From IMG/VR virus record IMGVR_UViG_3300045988_001437, positions 1-5,728 of that record: a stretch of DNA of 5,728 nt; one strand, 5' to 3'. Under the pieces are notes generated by a model. That model did not search any database, was not told where the DNA came from, and saw only the letters and a program-made list of their open reading frames with translations. Within the stretch, counting starts at the first letter, position 1, and every line of letters starts with the position of its first letter. Positions 1 to 5,728 of this stretch are shown here, piece by piece. This stretch comes from a virus. The position numbers were made by a program, and so were the translations under genes.

Positions 1-30
1 CTTCGGTTTAACGGTCTTGCGGTATGCCAT
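1..30 (-). CDS. Partial duplicate copy of the N-terminus of the 39-aa basic peptide gene (first 10 codons, MAYRKTVKPK). It is the same gene as 5564..5683, seen again because of the circular overlap.
   Basis: The reverse complement of 1-30 reads ATGGCATACCGCAAGACCGTTAAACCGAAG. The RBS AAGGAGGTG lies at 36-44 on the minus strand. Confidence 0.5.
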   Translation of the reverse strand, partial: MAYRKTVKPK

Positions 31-52
31 GATACCACCTCCTTTTTCTCTC

Positions 53-61
53 ATTTTACCA
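53..61 (-). promoter_or_regulatory. Candidate promoter P3, an extended -10 element TGgTAAAAT. The T14 tract lies immediately upstream. It would drive the J-like, RHH71, 92-aa, VP3, VP1 and VP2 operon. A duplicate copy lies at 5706-5714.
   Basis: The minus strand reads ccTTGCG-T14-GG-TAAAAT-gagagaaaaAGGAGGTGgtatcATG. The TG dinucleotide is at the correct position for an extended -10. The -35 is poor (TTGCGT). Confidence 0.3.
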
Positions 62-74
62 AAAAAAAAAAAAA
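61..74. repeat. A14/T14 homopolymer tract. Duplicate copy at 5714-5727.
   Basis: Direct count of 14 consecutive A on the plus strand. Confidence 0.9.
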
Positions 75-102
75 CGCAAGGCTGATTTTCGTCAACCTCA
101 CG
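61..102 (-). terminator. Weak hairpin (7-bp stem with two G-U pairs and a 14-nt loop, at 75-102) followed by a U14 tract (61-74). A possible terminator for the acidic-ORF transcript.
   Basis: The minus-strand RNA reads CGUGAGG-N14-CCUUGCG followed by U14. The long loop makes this uncertain, but the U-run is very strong. Confidence 0.3.
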
Positions 103-117
103 TTTTTAATTTTATTA

Positions 118-282
118 TTATCGGTTTTCGTATTCTTTCAGTTTTTCACAGATTGCGTCTGTCCATTCATCGTCCATGTCGTATTCTTCTTGTATTTCGT
201 CTCTGTCTGTGCTTCTCCATCCGCCATCGTAAAGAGCTGCTGCACAATCTTCAATATTTTCTTCGTAGAAATTGTATTTCAT
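118..282 (-). CDS. 54-aa highly acidic small protein, MKYNFYEENIEDCAAALYDGGWRSTDRDEIQEEYDMDDEWTDAICEKLKEYENR. Function unknown. It forms an autonomous expression cassette.
   Basis: Hand-translated. ATG at 280-282 on the minus strand with the SD GAAAGGAGAA 8 nt upstream. It carries 18 Asp or Glu against 6 Lys or Arg. Its own consensus promoter lies upstream at 323-351, and a hairpin plus T14 lies downstream. Confidence 0.6.
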   Translation of the reverse strand: MKYNFYEENIEDCAAALYDGGWRSTDRDEIQEEYDMDDEWTDAICEKLKEYENR

Positions 283-312
283 GGTTTATTCTCCTTTCAG
301 ATTTAATCCTTT

Positions 313-345
313 CTACACCTTTATTATACACCTTTTATATACACT
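313..345 (-). repeat. Three tandem copies of a 13-bp unit GTGTATAWWAAAG, each carrying a GGTGTA or GTGTA core, overlapping the -10 and spacer of P1. An operator-like array.
   Basis: Plus-strand tacacc at 314-319 and 327-332, and tacac at 340-344, on an exact 13-bp register. Confidence 0.55.
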
Positions 346-351
346 TGTCAA
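323..351 (-). promoter_or_regulatory. Promoter P1, a consensus sigma70 promoter. On the minus strand it reads TTGACA, then 17 nt, then TATAAT.
   Basis: The reverse complement of 321-352 is cTTGACAagtgtatataaaaggtgTATAATaa. The -35 element lies at 346-351 and the -10 element at 323-328, both on the minus strand. It drives the acidic ORF, whose start lies about 40 nt downstream. Confidence 0.6.
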
Positions 352-406
352 GCACTTTTTTGCCTTTGCTAGGAAGCGCTATCAGACTCCCGCCCGCAGG
401 CGCTCC

Positions 407-437
407 AAATGATAAGAGACCGGCTTTCGCCGGTCTC
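407..437 (-). terminator. Intrinsic terminator candidate downstream of Rep. It is a 9-bp perfect stem GAGACCGGC / GCCGGUCUC with a GAAA tetraloop, followed by UUAUCAUUU.
   Basis: Plus-strand arms lie at 416-424 and 429-437 with the loop at 425-428. On the minus-strand RNA the loop is GAAA, a GNRA loop, and the U-rich tract corresponds to 407-415. The element lies about 64 nt after the Rep stop. Confidence 0.5.
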
Positions 438-500
438 AGACTATTGGCGCGCTTCCGTTAGACTTTGTGTCAGCTGCCACACTACTTTATTTAGCAAATT

Positions 501-1616
501 TTATACTTCTTCTCTTATGAGTTTTTTGAATTTTTCTTGATTTTTCTTGTCTTTTAGGTCATAATATTCTTGCATGTTCAAGCCGGTCTGTCTCAACTGA
601 GCAAACAGTGCATCATTTGCGATTCTTCGCCGTTCGCGTTTGATGGCTTTCAGTTCTTCAGATTCGGCTTTTACTATTGTGTCTTCTATCGTCTCGCTTT
701 CTGCTTCAGATAATGGTTTGCTGTTTGAGTGTTCCAGATCAAACAGTTTATCAAAATATCGTGGTGGTTTTGTTCTCCTTCCGTTTTTCAGCTGGATTTC
801 ATCTTTTGCATAGATTTCATCTTTGTGTTCCTCATAGTATTGCATTCCGATTGCAGGATTTTTGCTCATCATGCAGCGTTCTGGTAATACTCCGAGCTCT
901 TCATAATATTTTTTGGAGTCCTTGCCATAAATTTTTTTTGTCGTATATCTGGCAGTGTATGCCATGTTTTTCCATTCTGCTGGTCCTACTACTACATGAC
1001 CCATACCCCACAGTTTTGTGAGCCACTCGACATTGTAGTATCTGAATCCGTTTTTCTGCTTGTAGATTTTCAGTTCTTCCGGTTTTATTGGCAGATCGTA
1101 CACGATCGCATGATAATGCGGTCTGTGTGTCTGACTTCCGTATTCTCCTGCTTGGTAGTACATCAGTTTTCCGGTATTTCTTTCATGGTATTCTAACCAG
1201 CGTCTTAGGCGTTTCCAGAATTTCTGCATGTCCTCATAGTTTAACGTTAAGTTCTCTATGATTATTTCGCCGGTTCTTTTGTTAACTCCCAAACCTTGAT
1301 TGTAAGACCACGGTACGTGGTCCTCATCGTATGTAAGCGTTAAAAACCACGCATTATCGTGATATGGCAGTTCCATTTCCATTCTGTTTGCCCAGCTGCT
1401 TGCATTTTGCATCTTACAGCCGGCACAGTGACCGCATGGTAGCAGCTGAGCGTTTTCGTCTTTCAGCTTTCTCAATAGCTTTTTTTCTAGGCTTTCGTTC
1501 CAAAACGGTCCCTCAAAGTTCTGTTGGTTGTTGTGCTTCTTTCCTGCCAGTAGGTATTTTTTCAGGCTTGTTATTTCGCCGTCTGCGAACCTTACTAATG
1601 GCTGTGTGCACCCCAT
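501..1616 (-). CDS. VP4: Replication initiation protein VP4 (371 aa), an HUH rolling-circle endonuclease of the phiX174 gpA superfamily.
   Basis: Motif 1 is FLTLTYD. Motif 2 is RPHYHAIVYD, the HUH motif. Motif 3 is MAYTARYTTKKIYGK, a YxxRYxxK motif carrying the catalytic Tyr pair. The N-terminal region contains the Cys cluster CGHCAGC. Confidence 0.93.
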   Translation of the reverse strand: MGCTQPLVRFADGEITSLKKYLLAGKKHNNQQNFEGPFWNESLEKKLLRKLKDENAQLLPCGHCAGCKMQNASSWANRMEMELPYHDNAWFLTLTYDEDHVPWSYNQGLGVNKRTGEIIIENLTLNYEDMQKFWKRLRRWLEYHERNTGKLMYYQAGEYGSQTHRPHYHAIVYDLPIKPEELKIYKQKNGFRYYNVEWLTKLWGMGHVVVGPAEWKNMAYTARYTTKKIYGKDSKKYYEELGVLPERCMMSKNPAIGMQYYEEHKDEIYAKDEIQLKNGRRTKPPRYFDKLFDLEHSNSKPLSEAESETIEDTIVKAESEELKAIKRERRRIANDALFAQLRQTGLNMQEYYDLKDKKNQEKFKKLIREEV

Positions 1617-1639
1617 ATGGATGTTTCACCCCGTTCACC

Positions 1640-1685
1640 TCAGTGGGCCCCAATAACTCTTCTTGATGTTATTGGGGCCCACTGA
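1640..1685. other. Perfect 18-bp inverted repeat TCAGTGGGCCCCAATAAC / GTTATTGGGGCCCACTGA with a 10-nt loop, lying between the RHH54 stop and the Rep start.
   Basis: The arms at 1640-1657 and 1668-1685 are exact reverse complements and GC-rich at the stem base. On the minus strand the hairpin ends 23 nt upstream of the Rep ATG, next to GGTGAA-N3-GGTGAA direct repeats (plus-strand copies at 1625-1630 and 1634-1639). Confidence 0.75.
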
Positions 1686-1729
1686 CACAAAATTTCTCGT
1701 TTCCTTCGTTTTCCTCATGGATTTTTGTT

Positions 1730-1894
1730 TCAATCGTTGAACCCTAAGAGTTGAGCATACATGTCGATTGCGTCCCTGATTATGTCGCTGTCGATGTATT
1801 TTTCCCCTGTTTTTCTGCTTTCTATGTATCTCAGTTCGTCCAGCTGTTTCTGTGTGAGGTTAACGTTTACTCTTTTTGCTACTTGACTTTTCAT
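1730..1894 (-). CDS. 54-aa CopG-like ribbon-helix-helix protein, MKSQVAKRVNVNLTQKQLDELRYIESRKTGEKYIDSDIIRDAIDMYAQLLGFND.
   Basis: Hand-translated because it is below the ORF-track cutoff. ATG at 1892-1894 on the minus strand with the SD AAAAAGGAGT 7 nt upstream. The segment KRVNVNLTQKQLDELRYIESRKTGEKYIDSDIIRDAIDMY aligns residue for residue in pattern with CopG KRLTITLSESVLENLEKMAREMGLSKSAMISVALENY. Confidence 0.6.
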   Translation of the reverse strand: MKSQVAKRVNVNLTQKQLDELRYIESRKTGEKYIDSDIIRDAIDMYAQLLGFND

Positions 1895-1929
1895 GATTAT
1901 ACTCCTTTTTAGGTAAGGCGTTCGATTCG

Positions 1930-1948
1930 TACACCCATAATATACACC
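1930..1948 (-). repeat. Two GGTGTA direct repeats 13 bp apart, flanking and overlapping the P2 -10 element. They are homologous to the P1 array.
   Basis: Plus-strand tacacc at 1930-1935 and 1943-1948. Confidence 0.5.
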
Positions 1949-1967
1949 TTCTTTCTGTGTTTGTCAA
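1939..1967 (-). promoter_or_regulatory. Promoter P2. On the minus strand it reads TTGACA, then 17 nt, then TATATT, immediately after the VP2 stop. It drives the RHH54 and Rep operon.
   Basis: The reverse complement of 1937-1968 is gTTGACAaacacagaaagaaggtgTATATTat. The -35 element lies at 1962-1967 and the -10 element at 1939-1944. It shares AAGGTGTATAWT-N3-GGTGTA with P1. Confidence 0.55.
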
Positions 1968-2900
1968 CTATCTATTGTTTCTTGCTGTGTGTCCGGGATT
2001 CCATTCGATATCCCCGTGTGCTTCTCCGCTGATTCCCCGTTCGTTTCCTCGTGTCGTGCTCTGGCTCTGCTGGCTGCTCTGCTGGCTCAGGTTGCTGATC
2101 TGCTGTGCACTGCTTGACATGATCTGACTTGTGGCCTGCTGCATTTGCTCTGCGCTGTACCATTCGTTCGACTGTTTGGCGCTGTTGATCGCGGCCATGG
2201 CGTTCTGTAAAAACTGACTTGTATTGTTGCCGTAGTCGTACATGCTTTGCATGGTTGCCGTGTGTGCGCTTGGGATGGCTGCGCTCTGAGTGTGTGCAAA
2301 GCTCTGCATTCCGCTGCTTGCTGTGCCGCCTGAAGGTGTGCTTGCTCCGAACCCGTTGTATGCTGCTAACACCGGGTTTAAACCTGCTGCTTTCAGGTCT
2401 TTCACGCCGCGCTGGTATGCCGTGGAACTCATTCTTTCAGCCCATGCTCGCTGTGCTGCAGCTTCTGCGCTGTTGTACTTCTGTGCGCTTGTCTGGCTTG
2501 CGAGGTTCAGGCCGTTTGCTACGAGATTGCTGAGCATGTTCAGGCCGTTTGCATAGCTCCACATGCCTGTCTGCAGATTGTTTGCTGTGGTTGCCTGTCC
2601 TGCGTTGAATCCTGCTGCTGCTTCTGCGTTGTTTCCGGTAGGACTTCCCAGCGCTGTCTGTAGGATTCCGCCCAGTGAGCTTGTGTTGCCTGTCGTTACG
2701 CTTCCACCGCCTGCGGTTGTTGTTCCGCTCATGGTTCCGCTCTGGCTTCCGCTGCTCATGCTTGTGTTCATGCCCTGCTGTCCCATGGCGCTGCTCGTGC
2801 TTCCGCTTGTGTTGCTGAACAGGTTCTTTGCTTGTCCTGCGATCGACAGACCCGTTGAAACGATCGGCAGCCATGTCGCTAATCCTGATAAGAGGCCCAT
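1968..2900 (-). CDS. VP2: Minor capsid or DNA pilot protein VP2 (310 aa). It has a Gly/Ser/Thr/Ala-rich low-complexity half.
   Basis: ORF track entry. The conserved pilot-protein motif [18 protein letters not shown] is present. The RBS AAGGAGGT lies 6 nt upstream of the ATG and overlaps the VP1 stop. The gene sits immediately after VP1. Confidence 0.85.
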
Positions 2901-2911
2901 ATTGTACCTCC

Positions 2912-4525
2912 TTAGATTGTATCGATGCCTGGGATGCTATAGATAGGCATCGGTCTTGTCCATGCCTGACTGTAATAGAAGTTACAGATAAACTGGTGAG
3001 AGTTCGAGCTCTGTACCGCGAGAGTTCTGTCGATGTTTTCTGTTCCTTCTTTGATCCAGCTGCTGGACAGGGTAGGAAGTGCGTCGTATTTGTCCGCATA
3101 GTGCCATGCATCCAGCGTCTGCGCGTAGGTGCTGCGCATTTCGGACGTTACCATGTTTGTGCGGTACCTGTAGTCGGCCCAGGCTTCCTGATAGCCGAAT
3201 ACCTCTTCATCCTTTGCCTGTCCCTGTGCATAAATCTCCTGATTGAGCACTGCTTGTTCACCGAGGTTTGCTAACATTGGGTCATAGTAGGAAAAGCGAG
3301 TGCTGCGCGTCCAAAGTCTGCTCAGACCCTGCTGATAGCTGTGATCTACTCGGATAGCTGCCAGACCGAGGACAAAACCATGCTCGGTCGCGCTGTATGT
3401 GCACATATTCCGGCTTAATGTTGTCATGGAATAAGCACCGGTGTTGCCCTGCGGACTCGTGCTGTCCGTGCTGGATGTCTGAATTACCTGATTGACGTTG
3501 ATCGGCATTCTGTGCCCGCCGATGTACTCAGACCGGTCAAGACGTGCATCCGGACTTGTCACACCCCAAGCGCCTTTCAGGATTTCTTTGTATCGCGTGC
3601 CGGTTCTTGCATCACGTTCGAAGATGTGCTGCACTGCGATTGCCTGCCGCAAGTCGTTGATTGTCGCAGTTGTTGCGCTTCCGAGGTCTGCCATCAAATA
3701 GCCGCTTGTTGCTACTGCAGTTGTTGAGGCCGTTGTTGCTTTGACTGACTCTTCAATTTTTCCGTTCGGCTGGTTGTAGTAGAAGTTTTGCATTGCTCTG
3801 CTTTCGCTTCCGCTGTTCAGCATGTTTCCATCTATGTCACATACTCCTATTTTTGCATTTCCCAGCATTGGGATCGTTACTGGCTCTGTCGATTTCTGCA
3901 GAGACGGCAGGCAGCTGGTGAAATAGTCCTTGTACTTACAGACCTTCAGCGGCAGTCCGCCCGCTTCTGCGTCCGTCAGGTTCGTTCCCGTGTTTACGCC
4001 GGTCGTGGTCGTGTCGTCCATGCTTTGGGTTACAGGTTGCTGCAGGTTTTCGTCTCTGAACCATTCGTTATATACCTTGCAGTACGCTCTGAAAGGCAGA
4101 CTGTTCACCTTCAGGCCGCTCACGCCTGTCGGGATTCCGAAGTAATCCGCCAGAGTCCCAACGTTCCAGCCGCCTTCTGGTGCGGTCGTTACCGGAGTTG
4201 TGTATTCGGTCGGTTCTGCCCAGAAAGTGCTGTCGTTCTGGCCCATGAGGTTTTGAAAGTGCTTCCAGAGCAGTCTGCTCGGAATGAAGAAAAAGTAGAA
4301 GTCCATGTATGCATTGTCCATCACCGGATACAGCGGTGTGGCCATGCGAACCAGTGCGTTCAGGTTGATCTTGAAGGTATCTGCAGGCAATACCTCGTCC
4401 AAATAGATCGGTACAAGGTCGCCTTCGTTCATGGTCGTCAGCAGATTGAAATCTCGCTGGAATTTCGCTCTTCGGATTTCCGCATGAGGTACCTGTGCAT
4501 AGTGCTGCTCACTGTTTCTGTTCAT
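2912..4525 (-). CDS. VP1: Major capsid protein VP1 (537 aa), Microviridae F-protein family of the gokushovirus type.
   Basis: The N-terminus YAQVP...[13 protein letters not shown]...[17 protein letters not shown]...[12 protein letters not shown]...[12 protein letters not shown] matches the conserved gokushovirus VP1 signature FAQVP..R..F..TTF..G.L.PI..DEVLPGDTF..ARMATP..P.MDN..FFVP.RL.W. The SD GAGGT lies 9 nt upstream of the ATG. Confidence 0.95.
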
Positions 4526-5009
4526 CTGCTTTTACCTCTTTTTTTGTTGATTCTGCTGCAGCCTGGCTTTGTGCTGCAGCATTGTTTTTCGTTGAAATGC
4601 CCATTTTTTCGAGCCATTCGGCTTCTCCTGCGGTCGCTGCCCAGTTCTGGAAGTTCATGCCGAACTTCTGTCTGATCTCCAGCGGCAGCTGGTCGAACTT
4701 CTCGCGCTGCTCGTTCATGAGGTTCAGGTATTCGGTGTATGTCTTCGGCAGTTTCGTGGTGTCGATGTAGTAGCCCGGCGTTGTCAGTGCCGTTTCATCT
4801 CCTGCAGCGTATCGGCTGAGTATTGCCATCACATCGCACTGGTCGCGATAGCTCTGGATTTTCTCGTAGGTGTTGACCTCTCCGACTTTTTCAAGGTACG
4901 GATGCCCGTTAGCATCGTACCTTTCTTTGTATTCCGGCTCCATGATGTTCCCGCAGCAGTTGCAGCGGACTTCCGGTTTTTCTTTTTCGTATGGTTTAAA
5001 GATCTTCAT
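4509..5009 (-). CDS. VP3: Internal scaffolding protein VP3 (166 aa), gokushovirus-like.
   Basis: ORF track entry. Segments such as YRDQCDVMAILSRY and FDQLPLEIRQKFGMNF resemble Chlamydia-phage VP3 as I recall it (DECDINVLMKKY and ELPSNLRKKF). The gene sits immediately upstream of VP1 and overlaps its start by 17 nt. The C-terminal tail is acidic and low in complexity. Confidence 0.7.
   Translation of the reverse strand: MKIFKPYEKEKPEVRCNCCGNIMEPEYKERYDANGHPYLEKVGEVNTYEKIQSYRDQCDVMAILSRYAAGDETALTTPGYYIDTTKLPKTYTEYLNLMNEQREKFDQLPLEIRQKFGMNFQNWAATAGEAEWLEKMGISTKNNAAAQSQAAAESTKKEVKADEQKQ
4993..5006. repeat. 14-bp direct repeat GGTTTAAAGATCTT, copy 1. On the minus strand it is AAGATCTTTAAACC, which forms codons 2 to 6 of VP3.
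   Basis: Identical to 5057-5070. It is composed of the overlapping palindromes TTTAAA and AAGATCTT. Confidence 0.7.
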
Positions 5010-5056
5010 TTTCTCTTTTTCACCTTTTTTCTCTCGTTGTATCGTTCTTTTTTTAG

Positions 5057-5070
5057 GGTTTAAAGATCTT
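5057..5070. repeat. 14-bp direct repeat GGTTTAAAGATCTT, copy 2. It lies immediately 3' of the 92-aa ORF stop codon on the minus strand.
   Basis: Identical to 4993-5006. The two copies are 64 bp apart. Confidence 0.7.
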
Positions 5071-5348
5071 TATGCTTTTTTCCCTCGTGTCGGTTTCTTT
5101 ATCGGCTGCTGCATGGCTTTCTTTTCCTGTTCGATGTTGTAGATCAGTTCCGGCACCTGCGTTGTGATTTCGCCGGTTTCGGTGTTGTACATGCCCAGCT
5201 TGTAAATTCGCTTGTCATCACAGTCTTGCTTTTCGGTTTCTTCGGTCAGCCAGTGGAAAGTGCGCTGCGTGACTTTCGGATTGATCACCATGATGTTGCC
5301 GAAGGTACCGGCCAGTTCGTCTTTGATTGCGTACATTTCGAGAATCAT
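5070..5348 (-). CDS. 92-aa hypothetical protein with a basic C-terminal tail (KKPTRGKKA). It may be a VP5-like nonstructural protein.
   Basis: ORF track entry. ATG at 5346-5348 preceded by GGAAAGGAATAAACA. It lies in the slot between the regulatory genes and the scaffold gene. I recognise no family from the sequence alone. Confidence 0.55.
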   Translation of the reverse strand: MILEMYAIKDELAGTFGNIMVINPKVTQRTFHWLTEETEKQDCDDKRIYKLGMYNTETGEITTQVPELIYNIEQEKKAMQQPIKKPTRGKKA

Positions 5349-5351
5349 TGT

Positions 5352-5567
5352 TTATTCCTTTCCCAGTTCGTAGATCTGTTTTGTGGTGATGTTATCGAGT
5401 CCGTAGCGCAGCAGCGCTCTTGTCACTTTCGATCTCGGGATTTCCAGTGCCTGGCCGATGTCTTCGATTTCGTCCAGCATTCCGATTTCTATTCCGATCG
5501 CAAATCGGGTTTTCAGTTTTTTCGGATCCTTCTGGTTGAATCGTTCTCTGATGTGGCCGCTGCTCAT
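5352..5567 (-). CDS. 71-aa ribbon-helix-helix (CopG/Arc/MetJ-like) DNA-binding protein with a basic N-terminal tail.
   Basis: ORF track entry. The sequence TRFAIGIEIGMLDEIEDIGQALEIPRSKVTRALLRYGL fits a beta-strand, helix A, a P-R-S-K turn and helix B. Compare the CopG segment GLSKSAMISVALENY. The SD is GAGGGGG. The start overlaps the upstream gene stop as ATGA, which suggests translational coupling. Confidence 0.55.
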   Translation of the reverse strand: MSSGHIRERFNQKDPKKLKTRFAIGIEIGMLDEIEDIGQALEIPRSKVTRALLRYGLDNITTKQIYELGKE

Positions 5568-5683
5568 AGTCTGATTCCCCCTCTGCTCGGTTTCGGATTG
5601 ACGTTGATCTTTTTGGTTTTCTTTGCGGTGTTGGTGAAGATTTTCTTGTCGATCTTCGGTTTAACGGTCTTGCGGTATGCCAT
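5564..5683 (-). CDS. Small, highly basic 39-aa protein, MAYRKTVKPKIDKKIFTNTAKKTKKINVNPKPSRGGIRL. It resembles the Microviridae J or gokushovirus ORF8 DNA-binding and packaging peptide.
   Basis: ATG at 5681-5683 on the minus strand, preceded by a strong SD AAGGAGGTG with 6-nt spacing. 40 codons, 11 Lys and 3 Arg. The stop TGA overlaps the ATG of the next gene as ATGA. It is below the length cutoff of the supplied ORF track and I translated it by hand. Confidence 0.6.
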   Translation of the reverse strand: MAYRKTVKPKIDKKIFTNTAKKTKKINVNPKPSRGGIRL

Positions 5684-5728
5684 GATACCACCTCCTTTTT
5701 CTCTCATTTTACCAAAAAAAAAAAAAAC
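5654..5728. repeat. Second copy of the 75-nt terminal redundancy, matching 1-75.
   Basis: Exact identity to window positions 1-75. Confidence 0.9.

Follow-up and report, generated by a model that had tools for sequence, protein, structure and literature searches.

A gokushovirus expression slot with exchangeable cargo genes and a proposed counter-defence role for its small acidic protein

Introduction

Tailed phages carry morons, i.e. autonomous promoter-gene-terminator units located between conserved genes, a concept that comes from lambdoid and HK97 phage genomics. Here, we analyzed a unit of similar layout on a 5,728-nt stretch of viral DNA (IMG/VR record IMGVR_UViG_3300045988_001437, positions 1 to 5,728; referred to below as the window), in which a gene encoding a highly acidic protein of 54 amino acids (aa) lies between the replication gene Rep and the structural operon. 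An earlier reading of the sequence (the original prediction) had described this region as an autonomous cassette organized like a moron or accessory gene and had suggested an anti-defence role for its protein. As in morons, a consensus promoter and an intrinsic terminator belong to the locus itself, which sits between two conserved genes, and its content varies among close genomes. The GC content of its open reading frame (ORF; 38.8%) is below the genome average (47.7%) but near the 41% of Rep (41.3%) and of a gene for a ribbon-helix-helix (RHH)-like protein (40.6%). The locus differs from morons in that it belongs to a 5.65-kb single-stranded DNA (ssDNA) microvirus and not to a tailed phage, and in that none of 55 instances was empty. 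Since the signals are conserved and the ORF alone is exchanged, we describe the locus as a fixed slot rather than as an inserted moron unit.

The loci of anti-CRISPR (Acr) genes and their associated regulators (Aca) offer another comparison. Shared features are a strong promoter, a small, variable and often acidic ORF, and a turnover of cargo between constant regulatory flanks. In addition, a validated Acr family (AcrIC5) occurs at the same locus in sibling genomes, and a repeat in the slot promoter is common to the promoter of the RHH-like gene, which would resemble Aca autoregulation. In contrast to acr-aca loci, the putative regulator is encoded about 1.5 kb away, where it heads the Rep operon and is not part of the cargo operon; the slot has direct repeats, spaced at a 13-nt period, instead of inverted ones; and the acidic cargo has no homology to any known Acr, its Acr activity being only proposed. 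Several small acidic phage inhibitors mimic DNA or occupy DNA-binding clefts, e.g. Ocr, T7 gp5.9, phi29 p56, AcrIIA4, and AcrF2. The acidic protein is like them in its very small size, its strong acidity, its position-conserved Asp/Glu on helical surfaces, and its early-type expression signals, but it has no sequence or fold relationship to any of them.

AcrIC5 itself is an experimentally validated type I-C anti-CRISPR that blocks DNA binding, with orthologues across Proteobacteria, Firmicutes, and Actinobacteria (PMC7913775). The protein carries a strong negative charge and is predicted to occlude the protospacer adjacent motif (PAM) site of Cas8c (bioRxiv 10.1101/2025.06.06.658234). Microviruses are among the most abundant gut phages. 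According to their most comprehensive survey, their accessory repertoire is very small and gene exchange with other phages is rare, and small peptides of about 65 aa sometimes link microvirus families in a manner left unexplained (PMC9239249). In the literature searched, we found neither Acr genes nor a swappable slot described for gokushoviruses, although absence there is not proof. The locus described here shows a fixed expression slot with strain-level exchange of the cargo, a bona fide anti-CRISPR family (AcrIC5) within gokushovirus genomes, and a protein family (at least 1,314 clusters) common to ssDNA and tailed double-stranded DNA (dsDNA) phages.

A conserved slot with exchangeable cargo

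In relatives without the acidic protein, promoter, leader, terminator, and the TGGTAAAAT that follows are all retained, with unrelated ORFs between the flanks. The conserved flanks consist of the promoter (TTGACAAGTGTAT...GGTGTATAATAAAGGTGTA), the leader through GAAAGGA, and the terminator (CGTGAGGTTGACGAAAATCAGCCTTGCG, then a T-run). By scanning IMG/VR and metagenome contigs with the promoter core, we detected 55 slot instances (some of them on duplicate contigs), which held seven cargo types. The family of the acidic protein, named LYDGGWR after its motif and counted here with its charge-neutral and longer variants, filled 38 of the 55 instances. A full-length AcrIC5 homolog was present in four, and five cargo types without detectable homology, some of them basic (+4, +5), made up the other 13. 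An alignment of ten slots displayed sharp boundaries, with near-invariant flanks around an unalignable interior.

Cargo exchange was evident among very close genomes. Those whose Rep is at least 91% identical to that of the window contained five cargos: the window-type acidic ORF, the L004-type acidic ORF, the long L165 variant, AcrIC5 (L155), and the L176 type. Conversely, L001, L006, and L008 have a VP1 that is 42-51% and a Rep that is 32-37% identical to those of the window, and yet their acidic gene is about 75% identical, compared with just 71-76% in genomes whose Rep is 94% identical. As similarity of the acidic gene is decoupled from that of the backbone, the cargo moves independently of it. 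These comparisons show a conserved slot in which the cargo is swapped. Conserved flanks, exchange of the ORF in siblings, decoupled similarity, and homologs in tailed phages all strongly support the accessory-cassette character put forward originally. The promoter/leader and terminator flanks may act as recombination arms through which the cargo ORF is exchanged among co-infecting relatives.

Two distant gokushovirus backbones, L001 (223-621) and L008 (3462-3860), carry the acidic ORF without a terminator; there, it is followed with slight overlap by a Peptidase_M15_3 gene (E = 1.9e-24), likely encoding a lysis enzyme. Another contig, L013 (IMGVR_UViG_3300006298_000061; 6963 nt), exceeds one genome unit and has two Rep genes, 67% and 51% identical to that of the window; it is a chimeric or concatemeric assembly.

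Expression signals and coding status

Each element listed in the original prediction (a sigma-70 promoter, a strong Shine-Dalgarno sequence, an acidic ORF, and a hairpin followed by T14) is present, all on the minus strand (Table 1). The extent of 76-351 given for the cassette has to be widened slightly, as the T-run lies just outside it at 61-74, within the 75-nt terminal redundancy of the circular assembly. The slot promoter (351-323) is the best-scoring promoter and the sole 12/12 sigma-70 match in the window, where a promoter scan returned 12 promoter-like sites compared with 5.0 ± 1.8 in shuffled sequences. For the slot terminator, the RNA fold has a free energy of -21.8 kcal/mol (z = -5.7), and none of 200 shuffled sequences was equally stable. 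Because three of its stem pairs are G-U, the hairpin forms on the minus-sense transcript only. It is near-identical in siblings (L155 has a compensated variant), and L006 and L012 have other hairpin-plus-T-run terminators at the same position.

The upstream boundary had been attributed to a terminator of Rep. A hairpin is indeed present (437-416), but with its poor U-tract and the structured Rep-slot intergenic region (352-500; RNA fold of 352-505, -54 kcal/mol, z = -2.9) this boundary is softer than was stated. The intergenic region 352-500 is just 37-53% identical to the closest backbones. On the downstream side, TGGTAAAAT is exact in eight of the ten aligned slots, with one-base variants in L155 (TTTAAAAT) and L172 (TAGTAAAAT). 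It is probably the (late) promoter of the operon encoding the J-like protein, VP5, VP3, VP1, and VP2.

The acidic protein contains 18 Asp/Glu, 6 Lys/Arg, and 2 Cys residues, which corresponds to a net charge of -12 and a pI of 4.05. A first homolog search returned 22 clusters, nearly all on contigs of 5.2-6.0 kb, and the gene was also present in fifteen IMG/VR genomes. The original prediction had named equally frequent synonymous and nonsynonymous changes in relatives as an observation that would refute it. They are not equally frequent: among 16 microvirus copies (103 usable pairs), the median pairwise ratio of nonsynonymous to synonymous substitution rates (dN/dS) was 0.20. Variable sites at the three codon positions numbered 26, 10, and 37 among 52 codons. 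Judging from these patterns, purifying selection acts on the acidic gene. We regard it as near-certain that the region is a genuine accessory cassette with autonomous expression, its transcription being predicted from the signals. The consensus promoter and the strong Shine-Dalgarno sequence would allow high expression once the double-stranded replicative form exists, and the strong intrinsic terminator would insulate the downstream late promoter.

Some database proteins have N-terminal extensions ('MYNKGVER...'). These were dismissed as artefacts of GTG/ATG start calls within the -10 box and the leader. In three other database proteins (P0019, P0021, and P0022), the N-terminal half of the acidic ORF is joined to foreign tails, i.e. 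the RHH C-terminus, an out-of-frame tail, or the VP2 C-terminus; they stem either from deleted or recombinant genomes or from assembly chimeras.

Table 1. Features of the cassette and of the putative regulatory gene in the window
Feature	Position	Strand	Remarks
-35 hexamer TTGACA	346..351	minus	12/12 consensus with 17-nt spacer; kept in all slot-bearing relatives
-10 hexamer TATAAT	323..328	minus	invariant across the alignment of 10 slots
Three tandem units AGTGTA / GGTGTA / GGTGTA, period 13	314..345	minus	candidate operator over spacer, -10, and start region
Shine-Dalgarno sequence GAAAGGAG	291..298	minus	8 nt before the ATG at 282; read from sequence
Cargo gene, acidic three-helix protein, LYDGGWR family	118..282 (stop codon included)	minus	ORF, 54 aa
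Intrinsic terminator	61..107	minus	A-tract, 11-bp stem 102-92 / 85-75, loop CGAAAA, T14 at 74-61
Extended -10-like TGGTAAAAT	53..61	minus	abuts the slot T-run; same sequence at 5706-5714; read from sequence
Hairpin GAGACCGGC-GAAA-GCCGGTCTC 3' of Rep	416..437	minus	terminator-like, weak U-tract (TTATCATTTG); terminator scan
Second, near-consensus promoter (11/12), TTGACA-17-TATATT	1967-1939	minus	GGTGTA-N7-GGTGTA at 1948-1930
RHH-like protein, 54 aa, candidate repressor	1730..1894	minus	weak matches and monomer model; putative DNA binding

AcrIC5 in sibling slots and in fusion proteins

The siblings with an AcrIC5 homolog as slot cargo are L155, L168, L187, and L202. In L155 and L168, the cargo matched PF22147 over positions 2-53 of 53 (E = 2.7e-26; 91.9 bits at a cut-off of 27) and the AcrIC5 structure PDB 7YHR over its full length (E = 1.1e-11). 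The L155 backbone is closely related to the window, with Rep 91% and VP1 81% identical. AcrIC5 is also the sole recurrent curated fusion partner of the LYDGGWR domain. Such fusions account for four of the 74 longer family members and occur in tailed phages; one fusion protein, P0035, is located on a tailed-phage contig, and in another, P0122, the C-terminal domain matched 7YHR with E = 1.8e-7. The window protein itself had no match to PF22147 in the Pfam search. It is like AcrIC5 in size (54 aa compared with 60 aa) and in charge (-12 compared with -10 for the microvirus AcrIC5 homolog). The two also share the genomic slot in sibling phages, and AcrIC5 is joined to the acidic domain in four tailed-phage clusters.

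The LYDGGWR family

None of the models in Pfam, PHROG, NCBIfam, or PADLOC matches the acidic protein. The family is large: an HMMER profile scan of 1.84 billion representative proteins detected 423 clusters (50% identity) at E <= 1e-3, and a profile search of a 5.8-billion-protein set detected at least 1,314 clusters at 90% identity. Members are labelled 'hypothetical protein' in every public source. They share the motif AAALYDGGWRs.D within a consensus of roughly ..AAALYDGGWRs.DR.eLi.EY.L..eeAdaICekLkEyE. The great majority are stand-alone proteins of 46-70 aa; the median length of 168 fetched proteins, multi-domain members included, was 72 aa. Some members have two tandem copies of the domain, and P0074 has three HMMER-matched stretches. 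The domain is also fused at either end to many different uncharacterised domains, as well as to HTH_3 and RHH_1. For the partner domains of P0048, P0023, and P0130, no PDB relatives were found.

AlphaFold2, run with a 97-sequence alignment, yielded a confident three-helix bundle (helices 3-19, 24-34, and 38-53; predicted local distance difference test score, pLDDT, 91), in which the invariant GGWR forms the turn between helices 1 and 2. Across the family, positions 19, 26, 28, 33, 39, 42, 46, 50, and 52 are Asp or Glu in 66-99% of members. Those in helix 3 (39, 42, 46, and 50) form an acidic i+3/i+4 stripe, and the mean domain charge is -8.7. Searches of sequence libraries, the PDB, and fold collections returned no structural or sequence relative of known function. 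A PDB sequence-profile search with the acidic protein gave noise only (best E = 0.089), fold and sequence searches against solved structures gave nothing specific and no match to a known DNA mimic, and a BFVD search returned solely another family member.

Divergent slot cargos in L018/L152, L147, and L154 keep the helix-3 region and an MKSYYEE-like N-terminal start, but have lost LYDGGWR and have net charges of +1 to +3. The charge has therefore flipped within one slot lineage.

Most of the family is found outside gokushoviruses, in tailed phages of gut Firmicutes. These non-microvirus members reside on contigs of tailed phages or prophages, about 40 kb long and derived from gut metagenomes, e.g. 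an Acidaminococcus intestini prophage, in clusters of small uncharacterised genes between the lysis module and lysogeny or early regulators of the helix-turn-helix (HTH) or RHH type. Neighbours of the domain gene include antirepressor and Fic genes, and in some loci HTH_3 or RHH_1 genes come after it. From collections of cultured phages and plasmids the family was absent, apart from two INPHARED records labelled 'Microviridae'; PLSDB yielded none. A first scan of contigs of species-representative bacterial genomes revealed no family member. With a degenerate ALYDGGWR pattern, 117 stretches were detected in such genomes, of which four were true (L092, L131, L132, and L134) and the rest chance matches. 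The four comprise two Clostridia, one Bacilli (Pradoshia), and one metagenome-assembled genome labelled Candidatus Babeliales. An element labelled Microviridae, L002 (MG945868.1, 1-5305), has no capsid gene and combines a VP4-like Rep with a plasmid-type Rep_1 (PF01446) and three LYDGGWR domain copies (ORFs at 1140 and 3580). We regard it as a probable plasmid- or satellite-like element.

Promoter repeats and a candidate regulator

The pattern GGTGTA-N7-GGTGTA occurs three times in the window, where 0.01 matches are expected. Every match overlaps the -10 box and start region of one of the two consensus promoters, i.e. those of the slot and of RHH/Rep, and none lies elsewhere. In all 15 genomes of the clade it is confined to these two places, and it is absent from three distant backbones. 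From its placement on the sequence, the second promoter (1930..1967) is that of the RHH-like gene, and it probably also drives Rep. No gene for a DNA-binding regulator is present in the cassette operon, which is monocistronic; the candidate RHH-like gene belongs to a separate transcription unit.

The RHH-like protein had weak matches to the transcriptional repressor phrog_876 (E = 0.024) and to DUF7123 (E = 0.06), and its profile had no match among PDB sequences. A single-sequence monomer model with an extended N-terminus and two helices is consistent with an RHH fold but is not proof of it. Homologs are 38-61% identical overall and 70% identical over the N-terminal 15 residues. In RHH proteins, the N-terminal segment is the DNA-reading strand. 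Based on the shared GGTGTA motif and the conserved N-terminus, we propose that the slot and the Rep operon are co-repressed in an Aca-like manner; the arrangement of the repeats suggests such co-regulation of the slot and RHH/Rep promoters.

An Rfam search of the window returned nothing meaningful. A perfect 17-bp hairpin without a U-tract, CAGTGGGCCCCAATAAC-N10-GTTATTGGGGCCCACTG (window 1641-1684, minus-strand sense), lies between the RHH-like ORF, which stops at 1730, and Rep, which starts at 1616. An attenuator, a structure that acts as single-strand origin or in priming, and a recognition site for Rep are all conceivable.

Proposed function and alternatives

Counter-defence is the best-supported function of the acidic protein. 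The support is circumstantial, and we rate the chance that this assignment is right as about even. It is favoured because of two independent associations with AcrIC5, the turnover of the cargo, the genomic contexts, and the conserved acidic surface. Given that a known anti-CRISPR gene occupies this position in siblings, the slot probably serves immune evasion, in a phage genome that is among the smallest. Gut Microviridae are targets of Firmicutes CRISPR spacers (PMC8530359), and an Acr would therefore be useful to them. The anti-defence role suggested originally thus gains circumstantial support from the AcrIC5 homolog in sibling slots and from the domain-AcrIC5 fusions, while it stays a proposal.

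Positions 53-351 (minus strand) form an autonomous accessory-gene slot of a human- or animal-gut gokushovirus, between Rep (VP4) and the J-like/structural operon. In the mechanism that we propose, the acidic protein would bind and block a nucleic-acid-targeting component of host immunity through the conserved acidic surface of helices 2 and 3, with a CRISPR-Cas effector as the leading candidate target; a DNA-mimic mechanism is possible. The RHH-like protein may repress both GGTGTA-bearing promoters, as Aca proteins do with acr promoters. A wider proposal would combine these elements: a dedicated, recombination-swappable counter-defence slot of gut gokushoviruses under Aca-like RHH control that also governs Rep, and LYDGGWR as a new anti-CRISPR or anti-defence family that is widespread and passed horizontally between ssDNA microviruses and the tailed dsDNA phages of gut Firmicutes. 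This combination is tentative, and we suspect that at least part of it will not hold. If true, the slot would be the smallest known phage 'anti-defence island', consisting of one promoter, one ORF, and one terminator. The locus also offers a compact discovery platform, as any ORF between the slot flanks (50-85 aa, a size suited to synthesis and screening) is a candidate counter-defence gene, and it opens a testable route to host and defence-system assignment for uncultured gut microviruses.

Several observations weigh against a counter-defence role. Four fusions among 423 representatives are a small fraction, and both the fusion and the same-slot arguments are guilt by association. The acidic domain is not AcrIC5-like, as an hhalign comparison of the family profile with the alignment of AcrIC5 gave a probability of 0.1%. 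No separate AcrIC5 gene was found beside the domain at about 15 tailed-phage and bacterial loci, only the known fusion. Most of the invariant residues (A14, L17, Y18, G20, G21, W22, and L48) look structural, with no obvious binding motif. Because the five other cargo types are uncharacterised and some are basic, the slot need not be exclusively anti-defence. Lastly, the RHH assignment is based on weak matches and a single-sequence model.

A small acidic helical protein behind a consensus promoter could alternatively be a host-takeover or regulatory factor unrelated to immunity that inhibits or redirects a host DNA-binding protein; RNA polymerase, a nucleoid protein, a replication or repair factor, or uracil-DNA glycosylase (protecting ssDNA intermediates) might be the target. 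It could also be a superinfection-exclusion or lysogenic-conversion factor. The spread of the family over many phage types agrees with such roles, as does its place at the lysis/lysogeny junction of tailed phages, which also houses conversion and exclusion genes and where antirepressor, Fic, and HTH genes are neighbours. We consider them unlikely, though worth keeping in mind: they leave the repeated AcrIC5 association by fusion and by same-slot alternation unexplained, and strain-level cargo turnover is seen more typically in arms-race loci than in genes for core takeover functions. Tandem copies, the variety of fusions at either end (HTH_3 and RHH_1 included), and conserved residues that lie mainly in the core or turn would suit a non-inhibitory helper module, e.g. 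for oligomerisation or solubility, or an adaptor, co-factor, or regulator that accompanies effectors such as AcrIC5. Against this stand the great majority of stand-alone members and, in the microvirus, a protein that is the sole gene of its transcription unit, is under purifying selection, and is the dominant cargo without a partner in a 5.6-kb genome; a helper role appears distinctly improbable.

A role intrinsic to the phage, as an acidic chaperone or neutraliser of the basic J-like DNA-packaging protein or as a Rep or packaging accessory, would explain why the charge of -12 complements the +12 of the J-like protein encoded directly downstream, and why the position between Rep and J is invariant. 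The family is, however, abundant in tailed phages without a J-like protein, and we give such roles very little credence. The J-like chaperone idea was rejected, since siblings with near-identical J-like and Rep proteins swap in basic (+4, +5) or unrelated cargos and AcrIC5. The simplest alternative, a chance ORF in an AT-rich intergenic region with coincidental signals, could appeal to the shortness of the ORF and to the lack of a matching curated family. It is already refuted by the conservation data: selection on the coding sequence and the coding-like codon-position pattern, hundreds of homolog clusters, the confident AlphaFold2 model, and the conserved promoter, Shine-Dalgarno sequence, and terminator leave it practically no weight.

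Genome setting

The window is a complete circular genome of the gokushovirus type, with a unit length of 5,653 nt and the redundancy at its ends. All genes are on the minus strand, in the order J/ORF8-like basic protein, 71-aa protein, VP5, VP3, VP1 (matching PF02305 with E = 1e-163), VP2, RHH-like protein, Rep/VP4, and acidic ORF. In Pfam and PHROG searches, the acidic ORF was homologous to none of the gokushovirus core proteins (VP1, VP2, VP3, VP4, VP5, and ORF8/J-like), and the canonical gokushovirus genes were all assigned elsewhere in the window. In microvirus relatives that carry the acidic gene, its location between Rep and the J-like gene is constant.

The listed 47-aa ORF of the J-like protein begins at an ATG within the putative late -10 box (TGGTAAAAT). 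The true start is probably MAYRK at the ATG 5683-5681, preceded by the Shine-Dalgarno sequence GGAGGTGG, which gives a protein of 39 aa with a net charge of +12; this start region (5681-5707) is the same sequence as 28-54. Between the slot and the J-like gene, many relatives have a conserved 34-aa ORF (MITLKDIKGIFNQLRKILAMLDKIYHAMGLDKEE) with its own Shine-Dalgarno sequence, e.g. L003 (1637-1795), L014 (4912-5016), L147 (1604-1708), and L149 (1619-1723). The window has no such ORF and instead has the 71-aa gene (5567-5352) after J.

The window is generally 85-95% identical to the closest backbones, with local drops to 32-66% at several short segments. These are the region of the 71-aa gene, the VP5-VP3 spacer, the VP1 loop region, the RHH region, and the intergenic region 352-500. 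Such drops in the aligned sequences indicate candidate mosaic or recombination hot spots besides the slot.

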